Shown here: piece after piece, positions 27,940 through 62,300 of the stretch | Layout: each line of letters begins with the position of its first letter | Position numbering within the stretch: the stretch's first letter is position 1 | Source of the DNA: Amoebophrya sp. A120 | Lineage: Eukaryota; Protista; Dinoflagellata | DNA: 64,000 bases | Reading direction: 5' to 3' | Assembly: GCA_905178155.1 (NCBI GenBank) | Contig: CAJINV010000017.1 | Coordinates: forward strand, 175,639-239,638 | Position numbers and translations under genes: made by a program | The notes under the pieces: model-generated | Told to the model about the DNA's origin: nothing | Database searches by the model: none | The model's input: only the letters and a program-made list of their open reading frames with translations

Positions 27940-30604
27940 TTGTATGGTTTTTCACGACCTCGTTTCACTTCTACAACGAAGATGATCAAACAGAAGCGAA
28001 ATAAAGCAAAAGAAAAAGACCGGAAGAAAGCCTCCGGTCGGGCTGCGAAAAATTCTGCTCAACAAGCAGGTAAAAATAAAACGAGCAAAGATGGAAGCGG
28101 AACCGCGCCAGATCATGTTCTTGATCCTAATGGACAACAATCCCACAGGAGAAAAGCGGTAGCATCGATCTTCAGCCGCAGCCCTTCCTCCAGTTCCTAT
28201 GCCTCGTCGTCCTGTAGCTGCTACACAAGCAGCGACACAGGTGGTGCAGATGAAACGGTTCTGGACGTGTACGACATGGAGCACCTCGAGGTTTACCGAT
28301 TACGAAAAGAGCGACCTCCTGCTGCAGCCGATCCTCCTCGTCGGCAGGGCAAGAAGCCAAAGAACAAACAGAACCAGTCCGGCTCTGCTACTGCTTGTTC
28401 ATCATCAACATCATCATCAACTTCCTCCGCGACAGCGACCTCTTGCGAAGAGGAGGACGAGAGCAGCTCTTCTTCTGACCCCGTCGCCAGTCCACCCAGT
28501 GTAGGCCTGCTTGTTGCGCCGGCCCCGGCATCATCCGATCTATTATTTCACGATCACGTTCTACTCGGAGAAGCAAATTATAGTCCAACGTCGGTCGTGG
28601 ACGCTGCAGAGCTGGAGCAGCAGAAAGTGATGATGAAAACTCGTGTGGGAGGAGGTGAAGCACTCGAAGGTGACGATTCACAACTCGTCGCTCGCACGGA
28701 CAGCAAAAGGAAGAAGAAAAAGAAGAAGAAGAACAGCACGCCGACCACCAGCACGACCGCAACGACCACTACAAACGCAACAACTACAACAACGGCGTCC
28801 TCCGACGAATCATCATCTTCTTCTTCTGATGAAAAAAGAAAGAAGAAGAAGAAGAAGAAGAACAAGAAGGCAGCGCAGCAGGTCGTTGCTCGTTCCAATG
28901 TCATGTACGACCTCAAGAGCGACAACCACTTGCAAAGCGTCGCACGGCAGGGCGGAACGGCTCGCGAGCTGAAAACTCTCCTCCAACAAGGACCACTTCT
29001 AGTGCTCACAGTTATACTGATTCTTGCTGCAGCTGTAGGTGCCTGGTTCTTCTTGCTGGGTCACCTTCCGGAGCCGGAACGAGGAAATGTGAGCGGCGCA
29101 CAGGTCGTGGAGCACGAAAGTCCCGTGGCTTCGGGGACGATGCAAACGAAAGAGCTCCAGCCACAGCAGGCATTTGTGCAAAAGCGGAGAAAAAAGACAA
29201 ACCTTCGGGGAGGCTTTGCTCCGCCAACGGTACAAGACAAAGTGCCTCCTGCGTCCTCGGACGGTGTGGTCGCGTCAACCCCCCCCTACCAGAAGGACTG
29301 CGACGAAGCCACCAGCACACCTTCTGGTGTCAACTGCACCCCGAAGGAAGAAAAGGACCAAGATGCGTTCGGATTTCACGGCGACCGTCCTGCCGCAAAA
29401 AAGCAACGCCAGCAGGGCCACAGGGCCAGGGGAGCAGGGACAGAAAGAAACGCCAAAACTAATCCCGCCTTGGACTTTCTCGAGACGCTGGATGACGTAC
29501 CCGCAGGAGCCTCGGGAGAAGGAGGAACAAGCGCTACTTCCTTTGCCTCGAAGGGGAAGGCAGGTGCGACACCTGCAGGTGGAGCTCTTTCCTTGCGTCT
29601 GCCGCACATGGCGCCGCCGCCTGCGAGCGGTGCATCGCTGCTACTTCTCGCCGGTGCCACGAACGGAACTCTACCGGGGGCGGCGGACGGTCTTATCGGG
29701 GGTCAAGAAGAAGAAGCCATGACGCGGGTCAGCAAGACGAACTACCCCGTAGCCGTGACATCGTGGCTGCAGGAAGTGCGGGAACATACGGGAACGCGAA
29801 CTGGCGGAGGAGTACCACAGGCTGTCGCTGCGACCACCTCTACCGTGACCGCGTCTCGTCAAACGACGCTACCGGCTTCGGCTCTTCAACAACAACAACA
29901 CGCGGTGGACAACGACGACAAATTTGTGCAAAGCAGTTACCTCGCGTGTCCGGAGTTTCTCAACGACTCAGAAGGCGGGGCGCTGCAAAGACCACCGACA
30001 ATGCAAGACCTGATGGAAGCGAAGATGAACAGTGATGATGAGTTTCGACCGAAAACGTGCCCGAAGTACCACATGCTTTTTCAGCACTTCCATATGGCCT
30101 TCTCAAATGTTACATTCTCAATTGTTGCATGAATTTGTAATGCAAGAACGGCAAAAGAAGTGAAAGGGGGAAGATTGCGCCTTTTGCGTTGCAGATTTGG
30201 CGCAGATTTAGATGCTGTCTAGCCCTTCGAACATTTGTCACGCGAAGCAGCTTAATCGTGGCGATCTTGCGCACCCCTCGGACCCCGCACCCCCCGGGCT
30301 TTAGCCGCGCAGTCTGTTAAGCCTGGAAAATCATGTAACAGCTGGGAGTGTAACGTTTGAGAGTCCCATACTCCAGGGGCTCCGTGTGTGCCCCGACTAC
30401 TATTTCTCAGAGGAAGCTATGAACGAACCGGTCTGCCAGCACACAGAAACAAGTTACACGGTTGCTTCTCGGGGGCCTTCAGGCTGGTGGCAAAGTTTCA
30501 GGTTGCCGAATGATATTTCAGAAGCGACCTATCAAAAATTTAAAGAGCAGGCCGGAGAAATGGAGCGCGCAAATCCTTTGTCGCAATTGCAACTCTACAA
30601 TTTC
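27940..30604 (+). CDS. Hypothetical Lys/Ser-rich single-TM protein, at least 2 exons; 3' end uncertain
   Basis: 730-aa ORF with poly-K, poly-S and poly-T tracts and TM LLVLTVILILAAAVGAWFFLL. Joins ORF 30386 in frame after removing 30093-30375 (QHFQGLRVCPDYY). Confidence 0.65.
30093..30370. mobile_element. TIR introner, family C
   Basis: ~40-bp imperfect TIR: tatggccttctcaaatgttacattctca and tgggagtgtaacgtttgagagtcccata. Direct repeat TTCCA/CTCCA. Frame restored. Interior is the reverse complement of 60455-60698. Confidence 0.9.
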
Positions 30605-30936
30605 TATCAACTGCAAATCTGTCTTGCTCTGCAAATCATATGCTGACGCTTCAAGAAATTAGTCAATTACATGCTGCTGCAGTGCCGGTTTCGTGTTTGC
30701 ATAACGCTCGCACCAGGAGATAGAGATTCAGACATGCACATGCTCTGGATCAAGGGCTCCTCGATTCCTCTCGCTACTCAAAGAAAGTCATGTATATGTC
30801 CTGCATGTTGTTGGGTTTCGGCACCGATTGCGATTTTCATTCTTTCTTGTGCAAATCAGCAAGGCAAGCAACATCATCTTCCCAAATTGAAATTCGCGTA
30901 CTACTTCTGCTAATCCAAATATATTTGCAGCTGATA
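30605..30936. mobile_element. TIR element, family A-like, no matching direct repeat
   Basis: Ends tatcaactgcaaat and atttgcagctgata. Flanks ATTTC/GGGTT do not match, and the downstream exon is uncertain. Confidence 0.55.
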
Positions 30937-31820
30937 GGGTTGAAGCGCGGAAAGACAACAAACGCAAACATATGCAAGCGTCAACAGGCGGGAACAGTTC
31001 AGAGCGGAGGATGAATGTGCACATGAAGTGTGTCAAGAAAGAGAGAAATTCTGAAATTTGATGTGGTATGGCTTTGCTCAACGTCAACTCCAAACAAAGG
31101 AGGTAAACGGATTTTGCTGCGATAATTCGCAATTGAAGTCTTACGGTGCGCGATGCTAGTGCTGCTGCTGTGTCAAATGCCTCACGCCAGGAGTGTGAAT
31201 GACCCTAAAAGCTCCTCTCGAAGCTGGTTGATGCCACTGAAAATTTTTGCTTCCCGCCGCCCCGCCCGTGTGGTTGACGAAAGCGGCATTTGTTGTTGCT
31301 GCTCATGATGTAGATTTAGGTTTTGCAGACTGCAACACTGTGGTGCTTCAACCGAACCTTGTGCTGCTGCTTCAGCCTAGTATTGTTGACGGTGCCGTGA
31401 GCTGATGGTGCACGAGACAACACACCTGTCCCCCCGTACCGGTGCCACCTGCGCACGAAAAAGGGGGAATATAGAAGTGGCCTCCAAGCGGCCCTGGTGT
31501 CTGACTGCTCGTAGATAGTGCAACTGTTTATTGCTGACGTATCCGGGTAACGGTAGGTAGTGGGAGGAAAAGTAGGATGGGCGAGAATTGCTTCATGATA
31601 CGTAAAGGCAAGTGAGATCCTCACCAGACTTGGGGACAGAGCTTTTCTCTACTGGCTACCAAAGGGAAAGCCGTGTTATGTGCCTCTTAGAAAAAGAACC
31701 TGCCTGGATGATTCTGTCTTCACGAACAGGAACACAAAGAAAAATGCTCCATTTTGAAAAGTTCCACCTCCGCGGCCTTCCATATGTCACCCCGTCAGAA
31801 GAAAGGAGTTCTGCCTGGCG

Positions 31821-34800
31821 ATGATCTTGGGCTTTGCTGACACTGCGTTTGGCTTGGCAGCCGAGATCCAGCGTGATCCTGAACAAAATCGTGATGTACT
31901 AGCGAGCAAGGTTGCAACCGTTAAAAACTTGCCTGATCGGAGCTGGGCCAACCTGTTGAGTTCAAGGTTCATGACTCAGGGCTGTCATGCGTATCTCCTC
32001 GACAAGAAAACGGCGTATAGCGAAGGTGACGAGGTGGCGTTTGCGAAGAAAAGAATTCCCGAGCTGCTCAAAATAGCAAGTGATACAACACGCTCACTGC
32101 AAGATGTTCGACAGCGAATTACTACAATCAAGATGTTCCAAAGAGAAAGCGACGGTGGAATGGAGATGGACACCATTCCCTTTCCCCATAATTACCGCAC
32201 AGAAAAATCTTGAGTTCTCATTTCACAGAATCATGAAGACGAATAACACTCTTGCATGAGCGATAGCCGATGCCGATCACTCGATGATACGTCTATCACG
32301 TGACTGTGACCGCTGCACTTAGATGAATTATTTCCTTGCGTACGGTCACACGCAACAAAACCGAATTGGAGCGTGTCGCTTTGACTCAAGATTTTGATTC
32401 AATAGCGGTATCGATGGCGGCGTCAACCTTTACCCCGCCACCGACGGCGTTATGCCGTGGCTTGCGTGGGCGATCTTCTGGAGCCCCAGGAACCAAGCAA
32501 ATCTGTTCAAGTTGTACCAGTGGGGGATCTCGCTTGGGCGAAAACACATTCCCGAGGGAGAGGACGACTCGGAAAAAAATTTCAGTGTGGGCAACTCAAA
32601 CTCCGGGGACCTTGTAGAGTGCCCGAACACGGTCACGATTCTGGGGCAGGACTGGTCCCAAGCCTTCGCCGAGCCGCAGATCGCCCAGAACGCGGAGGTG
32701 GCTGTCCAAATTTTCAACGCGCTGGCTGAGAATAACCTGAGACACAAGGAACTGGGGAAAAACGGCTGCAAGCGGCGGATGTCCAATACCAAAGTGCGCA
32801 ATTCCGTCTACTTTACTTCATGCGTTATGTTGCACAGGCGCCATGAGTTCCACAGCTAGAGCTCTTGCGGCCATTGAAGTTGCATTCTTCCTGACTGTAT
32901 CTATCATTATCTGTCACATGGGAATCTGCAGCACTGTTGATCCGGTGAAGCAGTAAGTAATATGTACTAGACGCAGCTGCTTGATGTCTGTGGATCATTT
33001 ATTTTTGTCACGCATAGACTACAAGAACAGTATGTGCGCTGCATCTGCGATGCTTCTCCGTCTGCTCTTCCCGTGCATCAACAAATGCGGCCGAGGGCGG
33101 CCTTGCGCACTTTCATAATACATGGAAAACCCGAGATGTGGGGGTTTGCGGTGCCCGTTGGAGGCCAAACCGCAGCGGACCGGGGACAAAATCCACCGTC
33201 CAGCGCCAACGGCAACAAGGTTGACCAAGAAGACTGGAAGTCGGAAGATTGGCGCGTGGAGAACACGGAGGGCGGCGTGTTTGTCATTGTTGGACTGCTG
33301 GAGCATGGTTTCTCCTACCAGGGAACCGTCCGTGTGCCCATGAAAGAAATCATTTTGCCCGAATCTAAGGACGGCACGATCGAGCTCCCGTCCAAGTCGG
33401 GTAGCAAGCAGGGGGTTCACGCGATTCGGCTGCCCCGGAAGGACAAGCCCGAGGCGAAAAAATTCTGGGACGCGTTCGACGAGCGGGTACGCACCACGGA
33501 TTTAGAGTACCACATCATGGAGAAGAATGGCTATCACGTGTACGTTTGGGCGGGACCGAGGGGAGAAAAGCATGTTGCGCGGCATTTGCGGCGCCTGGAG
33601 GCTTGGGAGCTGGAAGGACACGTCGATCTGGCCGGGAAATTTTTAGAATCCATTGACAACCATATCCTGAGTAAAAACGTACCCACACCAGAGTCAGGAT
33701 GGGGATTTTGCAACACAAACGTAGGAGCTTTGTGAGTCACGCATGACAAGTTGCACGATGCAGTGCAGTGCAGGTTAGCAAGTGCAGCCGCATCACAGAT
33801 TCGTCTGCTCCTCCTGTTCACAGCATTACAAATTCCAAAACACGATTGGAAATGGCTCTCATGGGGATGCGCATTACAACTCTTCCTGTCTTTGCAAATC
33901 TGCATTACAACTCTGGTGTGGGTACGTTTTTACTCAGGATAAACCACAAGAGCCTGGACCTCCTCTCTACCACCACGCAAGAAAACATCGTCGAAGTCCT
34001 ACTGTGGAACCTGATTCCCCTCTCTATACTCAAAACGAAAATATATGTGATTTTGATTTGATGAATGTCGTGGCCTCAAATCGCACTGCAGGAAGCAGGC
34101 ACAAATGCCACAGGTGGTGTCCGCCGCATTGCCATTGCGCACTCGGTTTCTGGTGTTGTGGAACTTTCATGACAGCCGTCTGGCATAGGCATGCGAACAC
34201 AGCTACACACAAACGTCCCGACTCATCTGCTTTAAAAATCACTTCCTTGTTCAGCCCCCTATTGCGTGAGAGATATGATTTGCGTACGTGTACGCACTTT
34301 CTACCCTCGTCCCCTGCAACGAAAAATTGTCCCCTCGCCAATAACAGGCGTTACCGTCCGCGATTCTTGTCCCATGCGTCCGTACTAACCAACACCGTGC
34401 GAACCGGGATATCGCGAGGGAGACCTTGGAGGCCTGGGCCACGTCTGCAGTTGTGGACGCGGCCTAAGGTCGACAGGGGTAGCTGCTTGCTGGGCAGGGT
34501 TATGCAGACTCCGGGGGTATAGCGGGCGTTCCCTAAAAATCCAAAACCTGCAGAAGTTGGGCAGCCAGTCCGGGCACTTGCTCGACGCTGGCCGTTTTTG
34601 TATGATAAGCGCGACAATTTATGCATGTGTGTTAGGCGCCTGCTTGCCTTCACCGACTAGTAGAGCAGCCCTCTCTGGTAGAGGGATCAACTGACTATGT
34701 CGGAGGCAGCAGGAGGACGTCGCTACGTCATTCACTCACATTCGTACGCAATAAATCCGGCATCACATTTAGTTTCGCTTTTGATGTAGGGCGGGATGAT

Positions 34801-37800
34801 TTTTCATTTTGATTAATCATGCTGGCACAGCAGGGGCTGTTGTACGTCTTCAAGGAGAAACACCAGCGGCTTGATGACTATGAAACCATTGGAAAAGAAG
34901 AAAAAAGGAGCGTGAGCCTCGTCCTCAGTGGCGTCTTTCTGACTATGGCCTACAATCAAGGCTCCCGTGGTTTCATCGCGGCGCAATATCAGCAGAATTG
35001 TTTCAAAGGGGGGAATATGAACTGCAAATATGTCTGGGTCTGGGAGAAGATTGCGAGGTTTGTCATGCTTGTCTGGCACGACTCTGGACTCTGTGTTGCG
35101 TGGCCGCAAAGAGCTCCTCTTGCCGTGCATGCAAAGACGCAGTTTCTCATGCGGAGTACGCAATTCAAAACTACGAAAAAACGTGCCATGCTTGGCGGCG
35201 CATTACAGTGTTCTCCGCTGTCCCTTCCTTGCATCACAAGTTCCCAGACCCAGACATATTTGCAATGCATAGGGAAGTTCAACCAGAGCAAACTGACGTC
35301 ACGAAAAGATCCCAAAACCGGGATGGAAATCTACGAGCTTGAGCAAGCGGAAGACAAGAAAGATTCCCAGCGCGGGGTCTCGTACTCGGTGTTCAAGGAG
35401 TGCTATATCATGGCCCAGGCATCCAAGGTTTATTTCATTGCCCCAACCGGAAACCCGAGGAAGAAGATCAAGACACTCTTCCACGCCACGCGTGACAACG
35501 TGCACAGTTCCTATCAGAGCGTGATAAAGAACATTGGCGCCTTGTCGAGCAACCCGGTCGAGCCGACAAGTGAAGACGTCGACGAAGTGTTCCGGGGAGT
35601 GCGTGAGACGCTCGACTGGCAGGTTCTGGCATGGCTAGGTCTGAGAGTGTCCAAGGCAAATAGCCTGCGGCTGCGGGAGCACCCTGTGGACTGGTCTGAG
35701 CCCATCATGCAGAAATACCAGCCGGGCCTAAAACAAACCTATGGCGACGATGAAGGCGACTTGAAGACGTTTCTAAAAAAGAAGCGGGAAGACGAGACGC
35801 AAGGCACCTTTGCATTGAACGTCGGCTGGTTTACGACGTACGATCTTCTGAACCGCCTTGATAAGATCAGCGATGCTATCCTATTCAAAAACGTCCGCGT
35901 CCGGAGTTGCTTCTTGTGCAGGAGAGTTGCATTTTCAGATTCAGAAACGCAAACGGTTGCCGCTCAATTCCTCTTGAAGAGAGGCCGTCATGCTCATCGT
36001 GACGACGTACCTGTAGTTCTTCGGAATTTCTTCATGCTGTATTTGCAGCATGATGGTAAGTACGCATTTGACTTTATGATGCGCATGCGACTGTGCTCGC
36101 AAGTAGCGCTTCCACTCCATCACAAAAACAAAGATCAAGATGGGAAAGTGCGTAACTCGCAAATAAGTAGAAAGAAACATCACGATGAGTACGTAATCAA
36201 ATCTTAACAGTGGCTGAAGAAGTTCCATCTTCTTGTTAACTTATGGGCGGGCACGTTTTTCCACAGGAGAAAGATCGTGAAGCGCAAGGCAACCTCCAAC
36301 GCAGGCGCGGTATGAGGGTGCACATCTTTATTCCCTTCTTGCCCTCGTTTGTAAATGCAGAATACAAAATATACACTGGGCCCGGCCTTGAGTTACGACA
36401 AATTTTGCAACGTCAAATAATAATTACTACAATGCGAATGCGCACGAAGAGGCAGCTGTGTCATGAGAAATGGCGTTGCAGCTGTTCACGCGCTTACAAA
36501 CAGGGGAGGAGGGGGAGTTGTGCACCCTCATACTCGGTCGAACTGCAACACAAGAAGAAAAACGATGACCAGGAACGGCGCACCGCTACGACTTGCAAAT
36601 ATGTCTGGGTCTGGAAGATTGCGCGGCTCGCCGTGCAGTCTCCATTCTTCCCCTATGACGACGTCTGGAAAAATGCAGCACGTAGCGTTTGAGATTCTGG
36701 AGGGTCCTCCACCTCCTGATCTATATTATTCGTAAGAACCCGGCTCTCCAGTTGACCAAAGCAAACGCGTTTTTTCAGTAGTCATGCAACAAGAGAGATT
36801 CATCTCTGACCCACGGGACGCTTTACGAGTTTGCAGTGTTTTAGAACCAGACATGTTTGCAGTGCATAAGCAAAAATGCCGTCCGACTGATCAAGCAGTG
36901 CCCCGGGGGGTTTTCGACCGACGTGCAGCGCGGGGGAGCCCCGTTGGAGGGGCGCGACGCGGAATTGGCAAGAAAAGCTCTCGGCTTGCTTGCAGTCCCC
37001 GTCGCCAACGAGCAGCAGCAAGAAGATAAGCCTGAGCCTGTGACTGTGTACTGCATTCGCTTTGACAACCCTGCGTTCCAGAAGGAGCAATTCTTGCTGC
37101 TGGGTCACGAAAGTGTGCCCTTTCTCCAGGCAAAGGCTCCTGAGAATCGCTTGGGCTTGGGAGACGTAGCACTCTTCTATCGAAATGAAGAACGTACTAA
37201 AGCCCCGCCCTTGCGAAGAACATTTCTATTTCAAGGGGTTTTTGTCATGTGTTGTGAGATTACCAACTTCGGGGTCTTTTATGGAAGCCAGGCCCTAGCG
37301 GAATCTGGGCCCTGGGTCGCCGAGAGGCGAAATCTGTTTGTGGAGTTGATCGACCCCCCTTAGATGGTGCCTTTCTGGGTATTGTATATGGACAGGCCCT
37401 GCGAAATAGAGCAAGAAGGAACAGCACCCGGGCAACAAGTCCCAGCGGCCCCTTCTGATGTAGAAGCGAAGCTTCCCTCTGTGGCCATCGGTGTTCGGGT
37501 GTGCCAGTTCCTTCTGGCCCGTTATTGCCCAAGCAACTGCAAAAAACAGAAACAACACGACCTCGCAAGCCTTGAACCGTCGAGGGCACGTGGCTCGATG
37601 GTGGTTGTACACTGTTCCTTCCAGCATTTCGCTGCTGCTCCCTCGCTAGAAATAGAACCCACTGTGGTCCCCGAGTGTCCGCGCGACCGTGTTGGCCACC
37701 GCCTCCGCAAGATTCCCGGCACACCATCCACAGCACCGACTCCTGTGGGGTTTGTATTCTGCGGCCAGGTGGGCATCGCCAACGATGATGATCAATATCA

Positions 37801-43219: not shown

Positions 43220-43385
43220 CGGAGTTCTTTTACAAGACCACACTGTCACCGCCGGGCGAAAAAAATGAAAATCTGACGTGGAAATAAATGATGAAGATGC
43301 ATGCGATAGACAGACTCGCACTTCTATTAAAGAGCGACCACAAAAACTAGAAGCTGCTTGCGGCGGGCGCCCCCACATCACTTCA

Positions 43386-47133: not shown

Positions 47134-47201
47134 GCCTTCCCCGCCCGCCTGCCTTCCCCGCCCGCCTGCCTTCCCCGACCGCCTGCCTTCCCCGCCCGCC
47201 T
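47134..47201. repeat. 17-bp minisatellite, 4 copies
   Basis: gccttccccg(c/a)ccgcct in tandem. Confidence 0.85.
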
Positions 47202-48695: not shown

Positions 48696-49404
48696 ATAAC
48701 AACTTTTCCTTCCCAGCCTCCATCATGTGATGTTTCATTGCGCGCGCACGCCTCTTAGTTTTATTGCGGCGTGGTCCAAACGAAAACGATTACTCCAGTC
48801 GTGTTTTCAACGAGAAACTACGCAGTGCACATAACAAAAAATGAATAATCATGAGCAAATTTTTCATGTGGAATAAAAGATAAACATCGGTGTCCGTGGT
48901 CTTCGACGAAGGACACTATTTTTTGTTTGCAAGGTGTGCGCCGGATTAAAAAATAAGAATATGAGTCTGCCATGAACCGATGGCGAAAGCGACACACTGC
49001 ATGTCCATGGTGCGCTAGGGCTTGCTGCAAAGGTTGTTTTCTTTCGCATGCGCATGGGCGTTGTTTTGGAGTCCGAGAAATCAAGAAAACCTGCTGTCGA
49101 CGTACCAGCTTGGGATGTATCCAGTCTTCAGCCACGGCATAGTCGGAAGAGAAATATGCATCAGGCAAGCAACTAAGAGTTAGAGTATGAAGAGAAGGAC
49201 TGCAACTATGGGTTGGACTAGGAGCACATTAAAAGGCTCCAGCATCATGAAACATCTGCGCAGGGAAGAAACCTACTATCTTCGCGATTATTTGTCGCGA
49301 GTTTTTAGTTTTACATAGTATGTACTATGCCGCGGCGGAAGCAAGCAGTCGCCCGGCGCCGGGCCCGATAGGTTTCTATTTTCCACGACCGTGGCGGGAC
49401 TACC

Positions 49405-52400
49405 TTGCATAGCATGACTCTCGGAAATCTGCATAACCCGACGTGGCAGGGCACGACCTATTGCCCGAACGCTGTGTCCTTGCTTGCGCCGGATTTCGAT
49501 GACCCCTTTGCTGAGGTGCAAATGCGGACGATGGCGTATCGGGCTGGGAAGGTTTTTTATGCAATGGCTACCCGCGTTGATGAGAATGGAAATTTGCGAT
49601 CGTCTCCGCCGGATATCAGCAACCACGATGAAAGCTCCGTCACAAAAAATTGCAAAGCGAGACCGGGTCTAACATACCAGTGGGCCCTGGTCATGCCCAT
49701 CGGCGGACAAACACAAGTCAGCAAAGGCGATCTGAGAGTAAAGAACAATTTGGCGGGCACGTTTGTGATCCAGGAACTGCTTCGGCATGATTTTGAATAC
49801 ACAGGCACGCACAGTGTTGCAATGGCTGAGCTATTCCCGAAGAACTTTGTCGCGTATTTGCCGTTCACCAGTCCCGGAGAGGCAGAAGATCACAGTCAGC
49901 AGCCAGATGGAAAGAAACAACCACACTACGTTCGGCTGCCGCCCAGATCCCGAGCGCATGAGTTTTGGGAAGCTTTCAACGAACGAACTGAAACCTATTT
50001 GGAGTATCATGCATTCCAGAGGAAAGATTCGGGCCTCGTCGTGTATGTGTGGGGCGGACCGGTAGGGAGACAGCACTGGGACCGGGTATTAAGCAAGTAC
50101 GACGGTGATGGTGCAAGTTTTCAGGTCCTGAGAGAAGCAGTTGGCGAAGGCGGACGTGTGCATCTGGCTGGACGGGCCATAGAAAACATCGAGCAACACA
50201 GAAGCCTCGACCTTTTGTCGACCAATGCGCAAGAAGCTACTCTTGAAATGATGTTGGCGCAGCAGGGGCTGCAGAAGGTACTAAAATACCAGGGGCAGAC
50301 TGTTGAGCAGACCCGTCTCCAACTCAGCGGTGTGACTTTGACGATGGTACCCAACCAAGCGACCCGCAGCTTTATTACGCAGCAGCACCAACAAAATTGC
50401 TACGAGGAGCGCGGTGATTCTCATCAAACAGATACAAAGGAGAATGTGCGACAAGGTGTTTTCGCCACATGCGGAAGGATGTTGGGGGTGGCGCGCAAGA
50501 TCTTTATCGCACCGACCGGCAATCCGCAACAGAAAATCGCCACACTTTTCCACACCACTCGCGAGAACGTCGAACAGTCGTACAAGAGTATTATTGACAT
50601 TATGCAGTTTGGAAATCGTGGCGACGGTGAGGTGGAGTTTGTAAGCCCATTGAGCGGCAAAAACGCCAAAAACATCCCGGGCAGCGACGCGGATGTGAAA
50701 AAAGTATTGGAAGGAATGCGCAAAACGTTAGACTGGCAGATGCTTGGCTGGCTCGGTTTGAGGCTGTCACAAGCAGATAGCCTCGACCTGCGAGAGGAGG
50801 TAGTTGAGTACAAATTTACGGGCACTGCAAATAGTTTTGACGCGCTCCATTACGAGCGCAATATTGAAAAAGCCCACGAAAAAAGCCCGCAGACGAACAG
50901 GATCAATCGCAACAAATATTTGGAGAAGCAGAAACAGGCGGAGGTCACGCGTGGTGTCGTCCCCTTCGATGCTCGGTGGTTCACGACGAGGGACACCATA
51001 TCAAATGAAACCGCCCGGACTTGTCATTGTCTTTCCCATTCTTATCTCCCGTGCGCGCACTCCCAACGAGGATGAGCTCACACTGAGTATATGCTAGAGC
51101 TCACTCTCACAGGCGAATGCATGAATGGCGCACAAGGTAGGTCGGCGCTTGAAACTATTTCTGAAACCACGAGCAGCCCCCTCATTTCGCGCAATGGCTT
51201 GATGTTGACTACGAACATGAAGCGCGAACGCCCACTCGTATTGCTTTGGATGTTGAGGTCTTGGCCTCTCGCGGCCACGGGTCGAGTTCTCGATCGAGCG
51301 TAATCGTGGGCTCTGTGGGTGGCTTTTCGCTTTTTTCTTACTGTCACGACTCCCTGTATCCTCGCTTATCGGTTTTGTGGCGACGTCCCTAACGAGTCCA
51401 CTCTTGAAAAGTTCAACTTTTTTAAGCCTCCCTACATCCTCGTCGCCATGAGTGAAGTTGCAGTTGTTGGCGCCGCTGCCGGCCCGCCGTTGCTTTTCCA
51501 TTTATTTTTTTCAGTTGCTACTACGTGTCTGATAGCGTTCTGAATTCTGTAAAAATAGAGCCTGCTAGAAGATAGTCACTTCTTCAGCTACTTATTTTGC
51601 TGTCGATAGACAGTACTGGGCCCACTGTGAATGTCTGTGTGTTGTATTGTACGCAGATACCCGAGAGCCCTCGACCCCCATGCAAGAAGCCGATTTTTTT
51701 CTTTCCCGGCCTCTCCTCGGTTTCGGTCTTTCAGACTTACGGCTCGTGGGCTTTTGGTAAGAAACCCCGTAATATCTTCGAACAAATAAGCAGTCAGCGG
51801 AAAAAAATAGGAGCGTGGGCCGGCAGCAGGCGTGGCGCCACGTGATGTAATATTTTGACATCACGGAGCGCCGCTGCGCGACAACTGCATGCAGCAATCG
51901 CTGAACTACGTAGTAATAATAATGAAATGCGAGAAGGAGAAAGAGAAGACAAAAAACTTCAAGTGAATAGTTTGCCCGGCGCCTCAAGCAGCTGACACGG
52001 TTCATGTCGAAGGAACAGAACCACGAAGAAGAGCTCTCTATTGACCCTGATGATGACGTTGTCGCTGTCGAGATGACGCCGGATCAACACAATGCGAAGA
52101 CCAAAGAAGAAGAACAGTCCATCAAAGAGAATGCACTTAAGCTGATTCAGAAGTGCCCCGGTGGGTTTACCACGGACAAGCCAAGCCCAGACGCACATTC
52201 CCTTGAAGACCTGACACCGGATCAGAAGAAGAATGTGCGGTGGGCCATACATCAAACACGGACGCTGAAGAACTTCCTGCTAGAAGGAAATCGTGAGGCG
52301 CCAGTGTATTGCTTGCCGACACCGCCGCAGGGTGCTGCCCCGCTTCGGCAGTTCCTTGTTCTAGCGCACGACACTGGGATGCAGAAGGAGTTCGATTACA

Positions 52401-52519
52401 CTTTTCTGCAGTCGCGCCCACGCGACGGGGCAGACCCACCGAAGGTTGCAAATTTTCAAAGGTTATCCGAATTGGGAATGCTTTTCGCTTTACTCCGAGC
52501 ACCTCTCGGCGATAGATAG
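49405..52519 (+). CDS. Unknown family X protein, copy 2 (exons ~49405-51000 and ~52004-52519; intervening structure unresolved)
   Basis: 556-aa and 171-aa ORFs are collinear with the reconstructed copy 1 at 32452-37200. Confidence 0.75.
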
Positions 52520-52694
52520 GACTCGTAGGCATGCTTACCCGTTGGATTGCTGTCATAGCAGACGTCTAAAATCTCAGAAAAAAGAAAGCAACCACCATGA
52601 AAGTTTTCATGTAGGAATGAGCAGGCCTCGCCCCGGCAATTGCATTCGGACCAATGCAAATCGCAGTCGCACCTTCACTTTTTTTTTTTTCAGT

Positions 52695-52820
52695 GTGCAC
52701 GGCGGTAAGATTCAGATTCAGATTCATGGAGCGGCAAGATTCATGTGCGTGGCGGTAAGATTCAGATTCATGGAGCGGTAAGATTCAGATTCAGATTTCA
52801 GTGTGCATGGCGGTAAGACT
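52695..52820. repeat. Degenerate tandem repeat of ggcggtaaga(ttcaga)n
   Basis: About 5 copies of gcgg(t/c)aaga, most followed by variable numbers of ttcaga units. Confidence 0.8.
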
Positions 52821-55800
52821 GACTAATATCAAGAATCGAAAAGGAATAGCGCGAAAGCCCGTACAAATTGCGCAGGCTTTATTCCTATATGCAGTTTGCT
52901 TATTCAGGCGCGCGGAATGAAGAAACCGACAGACCAGCACAGCAAGAATTGACAGCATAGAATAGTCGCGCAGCGACCTTCGCGGCGCTCAGAAGCTAAA
53001 GCAGTTTGTTACCTGCTCGGTAGCGCCACTGCCTGAGCGGCTGGGGCCGAGCCGCATGTGGCGTTAGCTTGCGGACGTCGGCGGGCAGGATTTCTCTTCT
53101 TGTTTTATTGTTAGACTCGCTTGTTAAGTAAGCAAAGCAATTCCCTTCCATATCGGACCGTCAACCCGCTGGAGCGTCCCCCCTCGCAGATGGGATATGG
53201 TCTGTGAAGTGTGGCAGCTTTTGGTCGTTGCGCCGGGTCTTTTCGTACTTCGTGGCACAAATCACGGAAAGGCCTCCATGTATGTATCTCATCGCGTCGC
53301 TTCCGTTTGGTAAAGCAAAGTCCTGTGACTTTCTCTTGTATTTTGGCGCCGCGCTTGCAGGGACTGGGCGGCACCTGCACTCGCATGAGAATACTAGGCA
53401 CCTAAGTTATAGATAGAAGAACGAATAGCGCAGCGAATTGTAAGAATGAGCTATAACTGACCCCGAGGCCTTTCCAATACTAGAAAAGAAACCAAGGTAA
53501 GCAGTGGGTGCTTAGATCTCAAACTGCCACACAGCGGACGCTATAAGACGCTCCACGACGAAGACGACGACGAAGAAGACGACGACGAAGACGCCCTCGC
53601 GGAGTCTGGAGGGGTGCGCCCTGGCGCTGGGTCAGGTGCGCCATCAACCAAAACCACAAAAACCAAGAAGAAAAAAAAAGACGAGAACAGTGCCTGCTGT
53701 AGTTGATAACGGCTGCGAGGCTTCTATCGATCATTTACAGTTTATTCGCTCCTGTCATTACCTAGAGGCCATATTAATTAAGACGCTTCTCCTGCTTTTC
53801 AGGAGTAGAGGGATGACCGCTATCGCATATTATATTCTTCACTCATTGTCATTTCAAGTCAGCTACCGGCGGTGTGGTCCCAAAGAGTATCTCGCACCAC
53901 CTGAATCGCAAGCAGCTGAAGTAGACGAATCTTCGTCAATTTTGAGATAAGTTTAAGTAACAAGTTGCATAGTCATTTTTTTCAGTCGGAGAGAAGACTA
54001 AGAAAAGCAAGAGCGGGCGTGACTAGGATTTGCACCATTTGCACGAAGTGTAAGTAGAGCGAGAGACCAGCCCGTGCTCTGCTTTCTTATTCTCTCTCTT
54101 CTTTGACCGGCTGGCGTTTTCCGATGCATTTCCATGATTTTTGTGTTTATGTCGAGTTTATTTGTCCTACAGTCACGAAGGAGCTCAACACTCGCAGATA
54201 TAATTGCAGATCGAAATCAGAAAGAGCTTAATGTGTTGCCACAACAAGTTCCGCGACTATTGAAAAGCCCACGCATGGTTTTGATTTGAACTATTTGCTT
54301 TTCTTGACTTCGAAGTAAGAGTAACGCTCAGGACTCCAACGAATTTTCATCCTTTTTCAACTTTTTTCACAGTTTGACTTTGACAAAGTGTTTATCAATC
54401 CGAAAGCATGACAATATTGCATTTTTTTATCATTCACCCAATTAGTTAAAGTAGTCTCAGATCTTCCTTTATTTTAACAGTTCATAAATAACGAGGTGGC
54501 CCCTTTTCAAGACTTTCGTATGTTTCTGCTTTAACATCTCCCAAGAAGAATTTTCGAAATTATCGGCATCTTAACTCGAAGTAAATGTAAGAAAAAGCCA
54601 AACCCAAAGAGTCGTATAACAACTAGCTCTGCAGGTTCATCCACATATTTTTTTTACAACCGTTCCTCCAGACTATAGCATCGCATTCGTCTATTTCTAC
54701 CGACCTCATTTATCATTTTCGAAAGAAAAGACACGGCATTCGTATCTTCAAATTGAAATTTGTTAAAGTACATTAACTATTTGGATAAGAAACCGAACGA
54801 CGATCTTTTTTGTTTCACACCTTCCTAGTACAGCTCTGCCGTGGCAGTGTTGTGCGCATTAATATGTTTCACATATTCTTTTTGTTTCACCGACCAACAA
54901 TCTAACAAGCCAGTTTGTACTGCTGTCTCGCATCCATTGTTCACATCGAGGTCTAAGGTCATACATAGCAATGTCAATGTGTTCGACACCAGTCCTGACG
55001 TCAACTTGGTTCTCTTATTGTCCTCGGTTCTTGCTCTTATTGGCTGAGTAGAAAACGTCCCGTCCCGTCACTTGATACCTCCAAGTCCCACAAAAAAACT
55101 CCGCCTGTATTGAGCTGCATTGGTTGCCGCGCTTCAAGATGAAGGAACTCATTGCGTGGCAGGCTCTGGTTGTATGAGCACGAACGGATCTGGTGAACTC
55201 GTGTGACCACATCACGTAGTGATTTCGAAAGCAAGTTCCGCTTGTACAGCTCGCAGCTAGGCTACGAATGTAATGTGGAGAAGCCTCCGAGAGGTGTCGC
55301 TGTCACCTGCGGGGGAAAAACATAGAAGCATGATGATAATAAGTATATTTAAGATCAACATCAGCAAAGCAGAAGTCCAGTGAAAGAGGTCCATAATCAG
55401 TCGTGGTCGGTTTTTCGTCGTGTCGTTGCAGAAGCAAAATCGCCGGGATGAATAGCAAGCAAGAGCGAACAGAAGCAGAAATACACAAGAAGCAGACTCA
55501 GGTATGGGAAAAAAACATTGATGCGGGAACTTTTGATTTTGTTGCACCGTGGTATTTCCTTCATATTGAGCAGCTCGCTGGATTTACCAGGACCCCTCTA
55601 CTTTTTCTGCAAAACAAGAACGCCCTGCTTCTGCCCGATGATCGAACTCCAATTCGAGCTCGCACCCATTAGAACAGAGATTTTATTGTGAATATTATTC
55701 GTATTTAAAAAAGTCGGAATCGCCCTCGTCGAAGATCAGCTGCAGGTCAGGTTTTAGGTTTACAACTTGCTGTTCGTAAAAATGCAATAGCTCGGTCGTC

Positions 55801-56312
55801 CACGAGCATTGCGTGTCACAACTATTTGTCCGCGTTGGAACAACGACGTAGGGCCACGGGACGTCGACAATGTCAGTGGGTCGTGAAAATCAAAGTAGAT
55901 GTAGATTTTCGTATTAATATAAAGAGGACGTACTTGTTACTCCACTACTTCGAAAAGTTCCTGCGTTACTTCTACATTGTCTTTACAAGAACTGAAACAG
56001 ATATCGGTTTTGTCGTGCCGGTCTTCCACATGTAACTATTACTCTTACGCGCGAGTACGAGATGCGCAGCTACCTATGAAATCGCAAAATAAGAACAAGA
56101 AGCACCATGAATCTACTATGACCGTCGCCCTGATAGAAGATGAAAAAAAGTTCACGGCACTTTTTTTTACTAGAACGTCGAAGTTGCCTACTCATTTCTT
56201 TGAAATTTCTTCTCTCCCCTTCTTTGCAAGGAAGTCGATGTCTCGCCTTCACGTTCGCTAGCCCTAGCGCAGTTTCTCATATTGATTCGGAGAACCGGCC
56301 GTCCGCCCCATC

Positions 56313-59300
56313 ATGATCGTCCGCACCATCATGAAGGCTGCTCAAGCTTCCCGTCGCGACCACGGGCGGCGCCCGGCTCCTCTCCTCGTTGGACCGAATA
56401 AGATGCTGGTTCTCTTATTTGACTTTGCAATTCTGTGGCTTCCTTTCGTCGCCCTGCTTCTCCCGACGCCCGCGACTGCGAAGTCGCTGGCTGACTGCAT
56501 CACCGACCTGAATGCCGGTGTGGGTTGTGAGCTCGACCCGGGCGTCCACAAGATATCCTCGCGGACGCAGCTGTCCGGCATCTCCGCGTCCAATATATTT
56601 CTGGCGGGTAGTACCGCGACCAACGCGCAGCCGAGCGTGATCGACGGGACGGAGGACATTTCGGCACTGCTGCAGTGGGAAGACTGTTCCACGCTGCCCA
56701 CCTACGCGGACACGTGCGCTAAGGCGCTGGCCAACGAGACCGCGGGCGCCAAAATCTACTCCGCACTGCTGCCGAACGACAAGCCGGTTTACCAGCTGTG
56801 GATCGACTCCACCGACGGCCTGAGGGAGAGCCACCTGGGCCGCGAGATGCTGATTCCCGCCCGGTGGCCCGACCCGACGGCGGACATGGGAGCGGCGCTG
56901 AATGCCCAGGCGGACGCCCCAATCTGTATCACCCGCTCAGGCGTTACAGTCTCAAATGTTGCGACGAAGTCTGGCACTGGATAAGGATTTTGTCTTGCAT
57001 GAAGACATCAAGACATGAACAATTGTAGGGCCTGCCACTATTCCTAATCCTATTCGCAAGACAAATTATTAAGCCAGAAGGTTCTACTTCCCATGTTTGG
57101 AGTTCAGAATTTGTCGTGCGTACTCCGGTGGTCAGAGTTATTGTTCTTATAGTGCACTGTTTACATCACAAATAATCTCCTCCGCAGCTGCTTCCATGGT
57201 TGTAACTCGTGAATTGTAACACTTGAAGGCGGGCCATAATCCGGGGCTCCATCTTCGACACCGCGCACACTTGGAGCCGCATTATTTACGGCGAACACGG
57301 CAAGGAGTTTGCGCACAGCGGGAGCTGGCCGACCTGGGTGCGCGGCACGGACGGCGACGACCCGCCAAACACAGGCTGGGGTTGGATCCAGGACGCGGGC
57401 GGTCTGACCCGGTCCTACCAGGTCGAAATATGTGAGTGCACAACGGGTCCCCTCCCGCCCCGCATTTGTCATCCGATGGAACCCGAAACCCAGCATGTGC
57501 TACCTTATCCTTATGGCACTGTTTGCATGACAGATTCTGGAAGTCCACAACCAAATACAAACTGTCACTACACTAAAACGAGGTGCACGAAGATGAATTT
57601 TCCATGCACACGCTCCACGTGTGCCGGTGGTGTTGCTTGCATTAAGGCTGTTCATGCAGCTCTAGTACAAATAATGAGGGGGACAAGGGGGAGTTGTGCA
57701 CTCTCATACGGAACCGAGGAAGGTCAGATCGAAACGTTGACCGTGTTACCCTCTGCAAAGGTGGTATCGTGCTCGTACTGACACTGATTGCAATATTGCA
57801 TGACAACAAATCAGCACAAGCAAAACGTGGCTTACCGTTAAAATGAATCACCCTCGTTTTTCTGTGTGAAGGAAATTGAAATTGATGAAAGCGGTATGGA
57901 ATAAACATGTATAAGTGCGATGTGTTTTGCAATGCATACGTGTCTGGCCAGGGTTATCTGGCCGACGCCGGGTTCAATGCGACGGGCGCGGTGATCGTCA
58001 TGGGCTGGGGCAAGCAGATGTCCGAAATGGGCTACGTGCACAACCACACGGGCAACTTTTTGTATTTTAACCGCATCCGCTGCCCCCACCACGGGGGCGG
58101 CACCAACCCGCCCTACCAGAAATCCCCCCCCTACGGGTCCTGTGCGGGCAGCCCCTTTGTCAAGTTGAAGAACGGGGAGGAGCAGGGCATGGCGGCCTAC
58201 TGGCTGGGCAACAAACTGGACTTTGTGAACAAGTACAAGGAGTGGCATTTTCACTCCTTCAACGGATCCAATATCACGGGGACCGGCCCGGGTTACGACG
58301 CCGACGAGGATTTCTTCGGGTCGGGCGTGCCGGACCCTGCGCAGGCTCTGGGCGCCTATTCGGGGCGGCTGTTTGTGCGGATGGAAAACCACCCGTCCAC
58401 GTACACGTGGCACAGCCGCGCCACCGAGATCGGTCTCGATTTTGACTGCAGCGGAAACAAGATGCAGCGCTTCACGCTGCGCAACATCGTCTTCTTCGGC
58501 AATGTGCTCAAGGGCTTCAAGTGCCACTACTGGACCGTGCACGACAACGAGTTCCTGTATCCTTCGTTCGCGAAACGCACCTTCCGGCACCAGTCCGGCA
58601 CCATCGACGCAGGCCTGCCCAACATCGATTTCGCCGACTCCAATAACTTTTACAGTTCGGACTACGGTAAGTGGGAACACGTACAAATTCAGCGAGGGGA
58701 AAGCGATGGAATGGCAGGGGGACGAAGTGGAGTGGAAGCACAACGAGTTCGCCTTCAACGGTTTCAACGCCCTGGACGGCGCGCACACCGTGCGCGTGAA
58801 GGGAGCGAGTTCCGACTACAACACCATACCGCCCCTGAAATTTTGGTACAACACGTTCCGGCACAACGGGCACGTGTCGGCCGTGTTCGCCACGGAGAAG
58901 GCCAGTTTCGTGCAGCGCAACCGGATCCAGCACCAGAACGTGGGCGAGCTGCAGCACGATGGCGAGGCCGTGGGCGCCGGCTCGGTAGGGACAGAGGACA
59001 GTCGGTTCATGTACAACTGGGTCGATTACGGCCACCACTCGCTTTCCCTTCGGTTCGATTGTTCCCAAACCGCGACCTTCTCGGACGTTTCCTATGAATT
59101 GCAAAAGTATCGTATTCGTATAAATGCATTACAAATTTTTTAGCATGAGAAATAGAATTACTTAAAAATTTGTATATGCGGATTTACCTTAAGAAAAAAA
59201 TTTGTAAATGCAAGACTTGCATTTATACGAGTGCGATACTTTTGCACAGGATATTTCCCGGAACGGCACGATGATGTACAATCTGGGGTACGGACTCTCG

Positions 59301-62300
59301 CCCAAACTGATCGTGAAGGGGGAGGACCACCAGATCCACTACAACACGATTCTCGACGGAGAGATGCACATTTGCCGTGACTTCGGGAGCAGTCTGTGCG
59401 GGATGAACCGGGACAGCTTCTTCAACAGCAACATGGCCTCGCTGTACAAGCCCCGCGGCGAATATCAAACAAAAAAAGTTCGTCACGATCACTCATGCGC
59501 ATTTTTGCAATACAAAATTGGCTGTCATGCGTAAAAATGCATGACAGCCAAGCTAGGGGATTTCCCTAGTGTTTCTGCAATACAAGGAAAACTTGTGATG
59601 CTAAAAAAATTTGTAATGCAAAACCTGCAAGTTACTGACTGTGACAAACTTTTTTCTTTCCATAGCGAAGGCTGCACCTCCAACTACGACGGTGTGTCGA
59701 TCGTCAACGGGCTTCCCACGGGCTTCGACGCGGCCTCGAACAAGCTGACCACCTCCGGCACCTCGTGCTCGTTTCTCCGCGACTGCGAGCGCTACGACTT
59801 CCGGCCGCACTCGGCGGCCAGCCCGCCCTACGGCGCCTTCCTGTACCACGACGTGGCGACCGAGGGCGCATTTGACGCCTACAACGTCCCCGGGAAGCGG
59901 CTCTTGCGGAAGCCGCAGCCCTTCACGCGGTCTTCCAACGTTACCGCCTCGGCGATCTCGGACTTGTCCTTGATTTTCATCGAGGAGCGGGACTGCGAGC
60001 TGGCGAACTACATCACGCTGTATTACAACACGGCGGAGTGGCCCATGGACAACGTGTCCACCATCCAGATTCCCGCGGGCATGAACGTGCTCCACGTGGA
60101 CAGCTACCTGCTCGGCTACGCCGCGTACGAGTGGGCGGTCACGAGTGGCTGCAGCGGGGACACGGTGAACGCCACGGGGCTGGGCTTCACGGCGGGCGTG
60201 GGGCCCCTGATCGGGCTCCCGCCGACCAGCACCACCACCACGACGAGCACCAGCACCACCACAACGACCACGACCCTGTACGTCGGGCCTGTCACCCTTC
60301 CGCCCACAACTACGACCACCCCCATCCCGGTCACCAGCCTGTACAACACGAACGCCACGGCGGCGGCCGAGGCCGCTGGCAACAACGCCGCCGACCCGGT
60401 GGTGCCGGCGACCGCCACTTATGTGGCCGCGGGATCCAACCTGACAATGGGGAGTATGCTGGCCTTCTCAACCGTTACATTCTCAACGGTTACATGATTT
60501 GTCATGCAAATTCACCACCAAGATCGCCCTGCTTAAGCGGTTCCGCATGACAAATATCCGAAGGGCCAAACAGCATCTAAATCTGTGCCAAATCTGTAAA
60601 TCTAAATGCAAAAGGGCAATTTTCCACCTTTCACTTTCGCTGTTCTTGCATTACAAATTCATGCAACAGCTGAGAATGTAACGCTTGAGAACCCCATAGG
60701 GAGTGCGAGCTCCAACTTCGTGAACACGTGTGGCATATGCACTACAAAACTTTCATACACCAGTGCCTGGTATTTCTAGTGGTAATTCTAAGTTTTCCAA
60801 GAAGACGCATGTTGAAAAAGGTGCGGAGCAAATTTTAATTTATATCTGTCATGCGAGATAATTAGAATTACATCCAGTGCGATACACTACGACTTTTGCG
60901 CAGGTGGATATGACACGAATGACAAGCTGCTGGACGCGACGCTCAGTACCTGTGCGGCGTTTGTCACCGCCATCAAGTCGTCGGTCTGTGAGGCGACGAA
61001 CAGTATGCTGCAAGCTGCCGCGACGAAAGACAGTACTGTAACGTACACCCGCATCGAGTGCACGCAGTTCCAGTTCACAAAGATCGCGATACGGATCGAC
61101 AGCGTGAGTTCTCGGCGCGCTCTGACGACGCAAGCCGCGAATATTACGATCGCTACCAATTCCACCGCGACGGTGACCGTGGAAACCGAGTACCAAATCC
61201 TGTTCTCGAACCCCGCCAGCGCGCTGGACGGCGGCGCAAGTGCCGCGGCCCTCGCGAGCCAGCTTTCGAGCGCGAGTGAGGATCCCGCGGCCAGCAGCCA
61301 ATTTCAGTCCTCTTTCACGTCGAATTTCGGCACCGCGGTGGCCAGCGACACGAGTCTGAGCACCATGACGGTCGCGTCCGTGGCGCGCAGCGCCCCGGTC
61401 GTGGAGTCGACCACGGTCTACGTGCCGCAGTCCGTGGTCACAGCGGCGCTCCCCCCGACTGCAACGGCGGAAACAAGTGGTGGCGGGGATAGCGACGACG
61501 GGGGCGCGGGGGTCATTTTAGCGGTTATCTTCAGCATCGTCGGGGTGGCGGGAATCGTCGCGGTCCTGCACTTCAAATACAACACCTTCGGGTTGCAGAA
61601 GGCGGCAAGTAGTAACTCGACCGAAGAAGCAGGCAAGATGAACCAGCGGGCCGAGGGCGAGGAAAATTTCGTCGACGTGGAGACTGGCACCCCGCCGGAC
61701 GTGGAGCAAAGCAGACCCAGTCAGAGTTCGCTGAAAAAGCTCGGCACGGTATGCATTGCAAAACAAGTAATGTTGTACCAGTTGTATAAAGTGCATGTTG
61801 ACAAATTTTCTCAAGAAGAAAATTTGAATTTGTAATGCTGATTCAGGTCAGAAATTAGATTTGTCATGCCTGAATGCAATTTGTATATACGAGTGCGATA
61901 CAACTTTTGCAATTCATACACGGTGGGCAACATCAACTCCGACATGCCGGAGATGGCGACCGCCACCGGGGTCAAAACCACCGGCCGGTGGCGCCGGTGG
62001 TACGCCAGCATGCAGTTCGGCTCGAAGGTGATTGAGGACTCGGCAAAGCGGGCGGAGGAGCTGGAGCTGGAAGATGTGCAGCTCAAGTTGGGTGACGGCG
62101 AGAGCGGTTTTTTCCAAAACAGCGCCCCGGTCGTTGTGGTGCAGGGGAACCAAAGTCAAGCGTCCGCGGTGGTGCCGGACGAAAACGACGACATGCTGAG
62201 CGCCGCGTCAGACCACGGTGCAGCGGTGGCGGGGAACACTGCAGCAGCTCCCGTAGTTGCGAGCACCTCGAGCGGCGTTGATCCGTTGGCGGGGACAACC

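Follow-up and report, generated by a model that had tools for sequence, protein, structure and literature searches.

How can one short element, lying in opposite orientations in two genes read from the same strand, be removed from the transcripts of both? The question arose in a stretch of 64,000 nucleotides of DNA from the marine parasitic protist Amoebophrya sp. A120 (the window, analysed as a whole), in which a first-pass annotation had noted the same element facing opposite ways within two genes of the + strand and had proposed that its removal does not depend on orientation, a symmetric terminal inverted repeat (TIR) being read rather than a branch point or polypyrimidine tract. Non-canonical introns, or introner elements, have already been published for A120 (Farhat et al. 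2021, PMC7789003), and both that paper and PMC11282704 leave open the means by which tens of thousands of introns lacking GT-AG are spliced out in Amoebophrya, where U1 snRNA seems to be missing too; the main text of the former uses the word orientation four times, on each occasion for genes.

Elements A (30093-30370, 278 nt) and B (60455-60698, 244 nt), assigned to one family (family C) and to neither strand, lie exactly where the annotation put them, and both begin with TAT and end with ATA. Pairwise alignment of the plus strand of A with the minus strand of B, a check proposed in the annotation, gave 81% identity over 184 nt (E 8e-46), and with 55 nt cut from each end the interiors still aligned in reverse (local score of 142 vs. 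21 forward, the highest score among 500 shuffles being 37), showing that similarity extends beyond the TIRs. The statement that the interior of A is the reverse complement of B therefore stands insofar as the interiors align only in reverse, but it is inexact, with 44 of 49 positions agreeing once one of the two quoted 49-mers is reverse-complemented. The TIR of A spans about 40-50 nt with two tandem 15-nt subterminal repeats, and a GC-rich insert of about 40 nt near 30269-30308 is absent from B, while B has a 3-nt insertion in its host-5' (left) arm. On the + strand, A is flanked by TTCCA (30088-30092, the first 4 nt exonic under the register inferred below) and CTCCA (30371-30375, one change, intronic), and B by GGGAG on both sides (60450-60454 and 60699-60703), giving a target duplication of 5 bp that matches at 4/5 positions in A, 5/5 in B and 5/5 in a third copy (L065:126-361). 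These three copies occupy unrelated sites, as do many matching records with other flanks, and all have a length of 236-278 nt, a TIR, a target duplication and no coding capacity. A and B are thus copies of one short inverted-repeat element, and being short, noncoding and bounded by TIR and target duplication, the family fits the description of the non-autonomous TIR DNA transposons (MITEs). A metagenome scan with a 16-mer (9 of 64 parts covered) found the element in 1 of 118 loci; viral and prokaryote collections gave 0 matches and Rfam none.

Host gene A (27982-37363, +) has 11 RNA-supported introns, starting at 30092, 30604, 30970, 32192, 32786, 33662, 33999, 35015, 35876, 36310 and 36586. 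When spliced, it yields a 1734-codon frame on the + strand with no comparable frame on the - strand, which rules out a - strand gene that would equalise the two orientations. In the three pieces of gene A scanned with Pfam, as in all 18 pieces scanned overall, nothing passed the cut-off, and a third protein search had no match. Host gene B (56300-62363, +, start approximate) has 7 RNA-supported introns, starting at 56926, 57428, 57746, 59092, 59462, 60454 and 61749, and an additional one (60735-60914, +) fixed by the public protein P0002. Its spliced + frame equals P0002 at 961/961 residues, with element B already spliced out, and skipping of its introns restores similarity to a paralog; P0002, like P0003 below, is an A120 protein (100% identity) and may share its underlying RNA with the contig runs compared here.

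In the transcript-like contigs, the A joint (30088/30372; contigs X1 and X2, one sample) skips 283 nt, or 278+5, and the B joint (60449/60699; contigs X1, X3 and X4, two samples of one study) skips 249 nt, or 244+5. The reading frame by itself does not decide between element+2 and element+5, as it survives either removal; the RNA joints settle on element+5, confirming that both A and B leave transcripts as the element plus exactly 5 nt. Accordingly, the annotation was borne out on three counts: the two + strand genes do carry the same element turned opposite ways, as alignment, frames and P0002 agree; the same rule restores both host frames; and removal is independent of orientation, with joints at both sites despite interiors that align only in reverse. 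The joints rest on assembled contigs, from which rare forms drop out (raw-read runs X9 and X10 had 2 reads each), and X1-X4 were flagged 'RNA?', their RNA status being deduced from the reading frames that are regained when 18 segments are skipped. For gene A, 15 of 19 joints were listed, of which the 11 of a 5.4-kb contig were used and 4 inside elements dropped; for gene B, 15 of 78 were listed, of which 7 in X1/X3/X4 were used and 8 found only in X5, between element ends, dropped.

The removed lengths bear on a near-canonical splicing in which the introns would be element+2, of the form GT..AG in B and AT..AC in A, with one codon added. Both dinucleotide pairs are present and the frame is kept, a perfect GT…AG of 246 nt being on offer in B, but the assembled transcripts skip 249 and 283 nt rather than 246 and 280, and P0002 lacks the extra residue, so that we consider this reading scarcely credible. 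As the main form for A and B, element+2 is refuted by the RNA joints; as contigs drop rare forms, it may see minor use. A U12 (AT-AC) intron was likewise rejected for A, given the removed length of 283 nt instead of the 280-nt AT..AC form and the reported absence of minor snRNAs in A120 (PMC7789003).

Removal of element+5 also equals the sequence before insertion and, with the RNA status of X1-X4 being a guess, the joints could in principle reflect elements that the sequenced cells lack in their DNA, through empty alleles or DNA excision. Against this, the unspliced run X5 carries the introns of gene B without the B joint (X5 was compared with gene B, not A), the product is a left/right hybrid where the duplications have decayed, and the exons of the gene A contig show 0 differences from the window while all 11 inserts are skipped; we regard this explanation as extremely improbable. 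A hairpin with direct repeats is also the classic setting for a template-switch artefact of reverse transcriptase, and perfect 5-bp repeats at the hairpin foot in 7 of 18 introns, together with evidence from contigs instead of raw or direct RNA reads, would fit such switches. However, joints that share no base (35876 and 36586) and others that match at 1/5 keep the same register, the dominant contig shows skipping at 11 introns, a form that the 1734-codon frame requires, and similarity to the paralog is restored by skipping, leaving template switching very unlikely, if a trace less so than missing elements.

We next considered where exactly the cuts fall. All 18 RNA joints, including the 11 of gene A, can be read in one register, with T and A at +2 and +3 and a further A at -7 (ATA in 16/18), so that the intron opens 1 nt ahead of TAY and closes 4 nt past the ATA carrying A-7. 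For random joints allowed to slide equally far, the mean was 0.68 and the maximum 5 fitting over 20,000 sets. Because duplications have decayed in some joints, the neighbouring registers are excluded, one base later by 4/18, one base earlier by 5/18 and both by 2. Under this register, intron A would be 30092-30374 (+, 283 nt, AT..CC, chosen among 5 equivalents) and intron B 60454-60702 (+, 249 nt, GT..GA, among 7), with lengths taken from the RNA contigs. A GT/GC..AG register is available in 0/18 joints, and neither A nor B has a GT..AG one; +1 can be any base, 13 different last dinucleotides occur among 33 introns, and an AG at -5/-4, present in 5/18 introns, is unused by the contigs. In print, A120 splice sites are described as 'highly variable', whereas here one register fits; the commonest A120 layout given in PMC7789003 has four bases of the repeat lying upstream from the 5' end; its Table S4 gives N-T starts for each of the 9 predominant non-canonical types in A120 and TT for each of the 9 in A25. 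Among the papers searched, we found no fixed splice register for A120 introners.

The two intron ends are constrained asymmetrically. Across 31 fitting introns (of a sample of 33 from 3 genes, with registers chosen by the motif), +2 T, +3 A and -7 A are invariant, while the bases they would pair with show 2, 2 and 7 changes, one of these 11 keeping a G-U pair; assuming both sides to be equally free, the probability of such one-sided change is about 0.004 (calculated by hand). The standard marks of a U2 intron are absent from A and B: beyond GT/GC..AG, there is no YTRAY motif in the last 60 nt and no polypyrimidine tract (pyrimidine fraction of 0.43 at -30..-8 in both), with the invariant A-7 found instead, around which no yUnAy context occurs. 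Conservation of this residue, which lies inside the TIR, suggests that it may be a branch adenosine. The proposal that the TIR is used in place of a branch point and polypyrimidine tract thus holds for the location of the signals in the TIR ends and for the tract, but its exclusion of a branch point is not supported given the invariant A-7.

Reading of a symmetric TIR, as in the first-pass annotation, could mean a hairpin whose paired arms direct an enzyme or the spliceosome to cut 1 nt ahead of the stem and 4 nt beyond it, a mechanism that has been proposed for euglenid nonconventional introns. Offsets constant relative to the TIR ends, the lack of AG, pyrimidine tract and YTRAY in A and B, and the U1 snRNA not found in A120 are compatible with this idea, as is end-to-end pairing between subterminal arms, predicted for 15 of the 16 introns that were folded (fold z of -2.9 for A and -3.1 for B), through which the arms may play a structural role. 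On the other hand, the end pairing is not predicted for intron 57746, and the terminal TIR bases are predicted to be unpaired (P<0.25) in 7 of the 16, including B, where the 3-nt insertion in the left arm accounts for unpaired TAT/ATA and yet the removed length obeys the same rule. Changes hit only one partner of each terminal pair, and arm mismatches of the G-U and A-C types stand at 44:32 (p 0.21; 25 of 28 elements counted), giving no G-U excess and hence no sign of selection on an RNA helix. Judged by terminal-motif pairing as in euglenid introns, the arms pair, the terminal triplets often do not, and co-variation is lacking. Orientation-independent removal does not imply symmetric reading of the TIR, and we consider hairpin-guided removal to be doubtful, albeit a serious contender. 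As the TIR offers the same linear letters both ways, orientation independence cannot separate hairpin from motif reading. We also set aside the bulge-helix-bulge geometry of tRNA endonuclease substrates, whose central helix could not be built from direct repeats.

The gene of public protein P0003 (40410-53702, +) provided an out-of-sample test of the rule. N-TA is allowed at 14/14 of its junctions, and A-7 as well at 12/14; the two that fail as annotated, 46488-47817 and 53195-53593, were re-read by hand from the DNA. The former, annotated as a 1330-nt + strand intron, probably comprises a rule-fitting element intron (46488-46778) with a GT..AG intron (46779-47817) immediately behind it; for the latter, a junction of 53195-53549 is predicted. 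Another GT..AG intron (40836-41182, +) also fits the rule, with ATA at -7..-5 and a 4/5 target duplication, and is possibly an element intron turned canonical; like 46779, it starts with GTA, so that the 5' motif of element introns is shared with GT..AG introns of the window. In a second family, the element at 2131-2336 (no strand assigned) is the opposite-orientation partner of 59463-59664, and its host frame opens on the + strand once it is removed by the rule in sequence. A global score had suggested 6077-6333 and 57429-57708 as another opposite pair, which failed the stricter interior test.

These loci also bear on whether a sequence-specific, non-spliceosomal nuclease plus ligase, or a transposase-derived protein, cuts at fixed offsets from the end motifs. 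Such an activity would account for the linear constraint and the indifference to AG without a very short branch-to-cut distance; however, the 5' motif is common to GT..AG introns, one intron fits both codes, one element intron adjoins a canonical one, and the A120 spliceosome is nearly complete, with U2, U4, U5, U6 and nearly all spliceosomal proteins present and U1 snRNA not found in the account of PMC7789003, making this possibility unlikely. We lean, with modest confidence, toward a relaxed U2 spliceosome that would read linear end motifs and remove A and B in either orientation. A transposase encoded elsewhere in the genome would insert the element, yielding target-TAT…ATA-target; the 5' cut would fall one base before the TIR, which would supply +2 U, +3 A and +4 Y much like a GUAY donor whose first base is unrestricted; the branch nucleotide would be the first A of the terminal ATA, with the 3' cut six bases after it and no AG. 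One plus four, or five, duplication bases would then leave with the intron, so that the mRNA is restored letter for letter for any target, whichever way the element lies. The TIR hairpin may assist in drawing the ends together but is probably not what determines where the cuts fall. Weighing against a U2 spliceosome, the branch role of A-7 is drawn from conservation without a yUnAy context, and the register is ambiguous for A and B themselves. Published family tables for A120 introners have GC and GA starts in about a tenth of copies (e.g. 44/331 in fam12), which break +2 T unless boundaries have slid within the duplication.

More broadly, we speculate, at slightly less than even chances, that A120 uses one code for most introns, an N-U-A-Y donor plus a branch A exactly seven bases from a sequence-free acceptor, which TAT…ATA transposons with 5-bp duplications would match, scar-free at any exon position both ways; the published 'highly variable' sites would be one rule blurred by sliding, and A25 would share T+2 and A+3. 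A fixed register points to the bases to mutate and to where a lariat should be sought, allows ambiguous junctions to be re-annotated and explains the freedom of these transposons to invade exons, while an acceptor set by distance alone, if true, would be an extreme of spliceosome flexibility.

With transcript-backed non-GT-AG ends, a TIR beginning with TAT, direct repeats and unrelated sites, A and B are A120 introners, resembling those described in PMC7789003 (inverted repeats starting with TAT, about 240 nt) with direct repeats over the junctions of 5 bp here vs. 3-5 nt there. Two-way introners having been reported for Polarella glacialis (classes 6, 8, 10, 2, 7 and 3) and Aureococcus anophagefferens (Roy et al., 10.1101/2020.10.14.339549, citing Huff et al. 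2016), the two-orientation observation alone is of modest novelty; their GT/GC/GA…AG sites come from the element or a constrained duplication, whereas neither end dinucleotide is fixed here and any target works. Stentor coeruleus, likewise an alveolate, has tiny introns (PMC9505925) with a GUA start, no strong branch motif and a branch A at a fixed place, the 10th of 15 nt and six bases from the end, but these are 15-16 nt long, GU-AG and not transposon-derived. Euglenid nonconventional introns (PMC11282704), which leave as circles, share with A and B the junction repeats and the lack of a pyrimidine tract; their TIRs pair at fixed end offsets, +4..+6 with -8..-6, while the positions here are +2..+4 and -7..-5, with partners that do not co-vary. 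The precedent for the favored mechanism is Fritillaria borealis (PMC11282704; PMC13326754), whose TIR/TSD-derived introns lack GT-AG and are removed by the U2 spliceosome; they prefer AG-AC/AG-AT ends after an exonic TAC, with U1 conserved, whereas the introns studied here accept any first and last base, and no U1 snRNA was found in A120.

The two copies of the family C element, A (30093-30370) and B (60455-60698), reside in separate + strand host genes (gene A, 27982-37363; gene B, 56300-62363, start approximate). Both copies begin with TAT, end with ATA and are flanked by 5-bp repeats (TTCCA/CTCCA at A, GGGAG/GGGAG at B). The + strand of A matched the - strand of B with 81% identity across 184 nt, and the interiors, with 55 nt cut off each end, aligned in reverse orientation only (142 vs. 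21; at most 37 in 500 shuffles). These data bore out the proposal of the first-pass annotation that A and B are one family in opposite orientations, with similarity extending beyond the family's ~40-50 nt TIRs, each containing two tandem 15-nt repeats. A third copy (positions 126-361, repeat TTTTT) was found in 1 of 118 metagenome loci retrieved by 16-mer (L065), oriented as in A relative to its apparent - strand host. Within the same apparent gene, 51 nt away, lies a second TAT…ATA element (L065:413-679) with a perfect CCGCG duplication. A second family also has a pair in opposite orientations in + strand genes (2131-2336 and 59463-59664), with RNA support at 59463-59664 only.

Removal of both orientations, as the same annotation had claimed, was evident from contigs of sequencing runs matched to the window: 283 nt were skipped at A (runs X1 and X2, one sample) and 249 nt at B (X1, X3 and X4, two samples of one study), in each case the element plus 5 nt. 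A fifth run, X5, was unspliced over gene B, without the B joint (the contig junction where a segment is skipped). While X1-X4 carry a guessed-RNA label only, we took them as RNA because a single 5.4-kb contig skips 11 segments of gene A, is otherwise identical to the window and yields a 1734-codon + strand frame. Gene B spliced by the rule described below equals the public protein P0002 at 961/961 residues; P0002 and P0003, a second public protein, are both labeled as Amoebophrya sp. A120, which assigns the window to that strain; being possibly built on the same RNA, they were not counted as independent expression evidence.

To define the cuts, we analyzed 18 joints, 11 of 15 listed for gene A and 7 of 15 listed for gene B, setting aside those inside elements or in X5 only (4 and 63 further rows, respectively, lie beyond those listed). 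Most joints slide among several equivalent registers owing to target duplication. Among those used, all 18 had exactly one register with TA at +2/+3 and A at -7 (counted from the intron ends), with ATA at -7 to -5 in 16, vs. a mean of 0.68 and a maximum of 5 for this motif over 20,000 sets of random joints. Two joints have this register only; a start one base later is ruled out by 4/18 and one base earlier by 5/18. From this common register, the intron consists of the element with 1 duplication base on its left and 4 on its right, removal of which restores the mRNA exactly. For A and B themselves (5 and 7 equivalent positions), we infer the register from the other joints. None of the 18 joints used allowed a GT/GC..AG register, and AG occurred at -5/-4 in 5/18 introns. 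A 246-nt GT..AG intron that would keep the frame is available in B, but the contigs skip 249 nt; rare use of that acceptor would not show in contigs.

P0003, retrieved only after the rule was fixed, maps to 40410-53702 with 14 junctions, two of which border a 10-nt exon placed by hand whose translation agrees. N-TA was allowed at 14/14, A at -7 at 12/14 and ATA at 10/14. Both misses (46488-47817 and 53195-53593) hold a matching TIR end farther inside. The first reads as a putative element intron (to 46778) directly followed by a GT..AG intron, with a zero-length exon between, which would imply ordered two-step removal. The second ends in a low-complexity GAC/GAA repeat, and the frame stays open with an end at 53549, which conforms to the rule; this public junction is probably misplaced, with a different C-terminus predicted by this putative re-reading. 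GT..AG introns of the window also start with GTA, and 40836-41182 fits both the GT..AG code and the rule.

The first-pass annotation attributed two-way removal to the symmetric TIR rather than to a strand-specific branch point or polypyrimidine tract. The observation was confirmed, but this interpretation was supported in part only: as the TIR presents the same letters both ways, orientation independence is compatible with either a hairpin or a motif, and symmetric reading is not implied. If hairpin geometry set the cuts, which we regard as unlikely, the subterminal arms, predicted to pair in 15/16 folded introns, would be in keeping with it. However, +2 T, +3 A and -7 A were invariant in the 31 fitting introns whereas their pairing partners -5, -6 and +4 changed 2, 2 and 7 times, such that TAC…ATA was present and TAT…GTA absent. 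By hand calculation, such one-sided change has a chance of ~0.004 if both sides are equally free, a figure tempered by use of the motif in choosing registers and by 2/33 junctions lacking A-7 as annotated. In addition, terminal bases were predicted unpaired in 7/16, B included, and arm mismatches showed no significant G-U excess (44:32, p 0.21). Given this one-sided constraint, the termini predicted unpaired in part of the introns and the GTA start shared with GT..AG introns, we lean, on sequence grounds, toward a relaxed U2 spliceosome that would excise the elements with A-7 as the candidate branch point; the TIR hairpin may assist removal. Excision by a separate nuclease-ligase seems improbable, more so than hairpin geometry.

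Several other features of the window deserve mention. At 58660-58670, gene B changes reading frame vs. its paralog (20672-26279), being ~5 nt short; this is not an assembly slip, since X1/X3 contigs and X5 match the window gap-free, and P0002 begins in the second frame. The paralog likewise switches frame, near 21270, contains TAG and TGA in frame (near 21379 and 23610, respectively) and lacks inserts at the intron positions of gene B (60454 and 60735). P0002 fixes a rule-conform intron of gene B at 60735-60914 (+). Judging from where contigs break, this intron appears to be retained often, or else a GT..AG intron nested within it (60770-60903) is used instead; either event would terminate the frame early. 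Gene A and the P0003 gene appear by eye to be paralogs, both resembling the A25 protein P0004. Within 43384-44809, a ~64-nt segment (intron 3' end plus exon start) is present at 43386, 44231 and 44746, amid which lies a GC-rich palindromic repeat array (43470-44090). Tandem repeats rich in proline codons and a second array occupy 62639-63585, and one N occurs near 63925.

In published work, T occupies the second position in all 9 predominant non-canonical types of each strain, A120 and A25 (PMC7789003, Table S4). Among the A120 families of PMC12130899 (rows for 22 of 58), splice sites are mixed, duplications range from 2 to 5 in length and mechanisms differ, and about one copy in ten starts with GC or GA; since the rule requires +2 T, these starts count against it unless boundaries slid. 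In the literature searched, which covered few subscription papers and included PMC11282704, PMC13326754, PMC9505925, PMC11453091, PMC12621601 and 10.1101/2022.06.06.494994, we found no fixed register or -7 adenosine for Amoebophrya, although part of the rule may be visible in figures of PMC7789003 (Fig. 3, S19-S25). A fixed cutting rule with a sequence-free acceptor appears to be new, and renders the splicing mechanism testable. A and B themselves belong to a published element class, and two-way introners are already known elsewhere, with the Roy preprint (10.1101/2020.10.14.339549) reporting introners in either orientation in Polarella and citing the same for Aureococcus from Huff et al. 2016.
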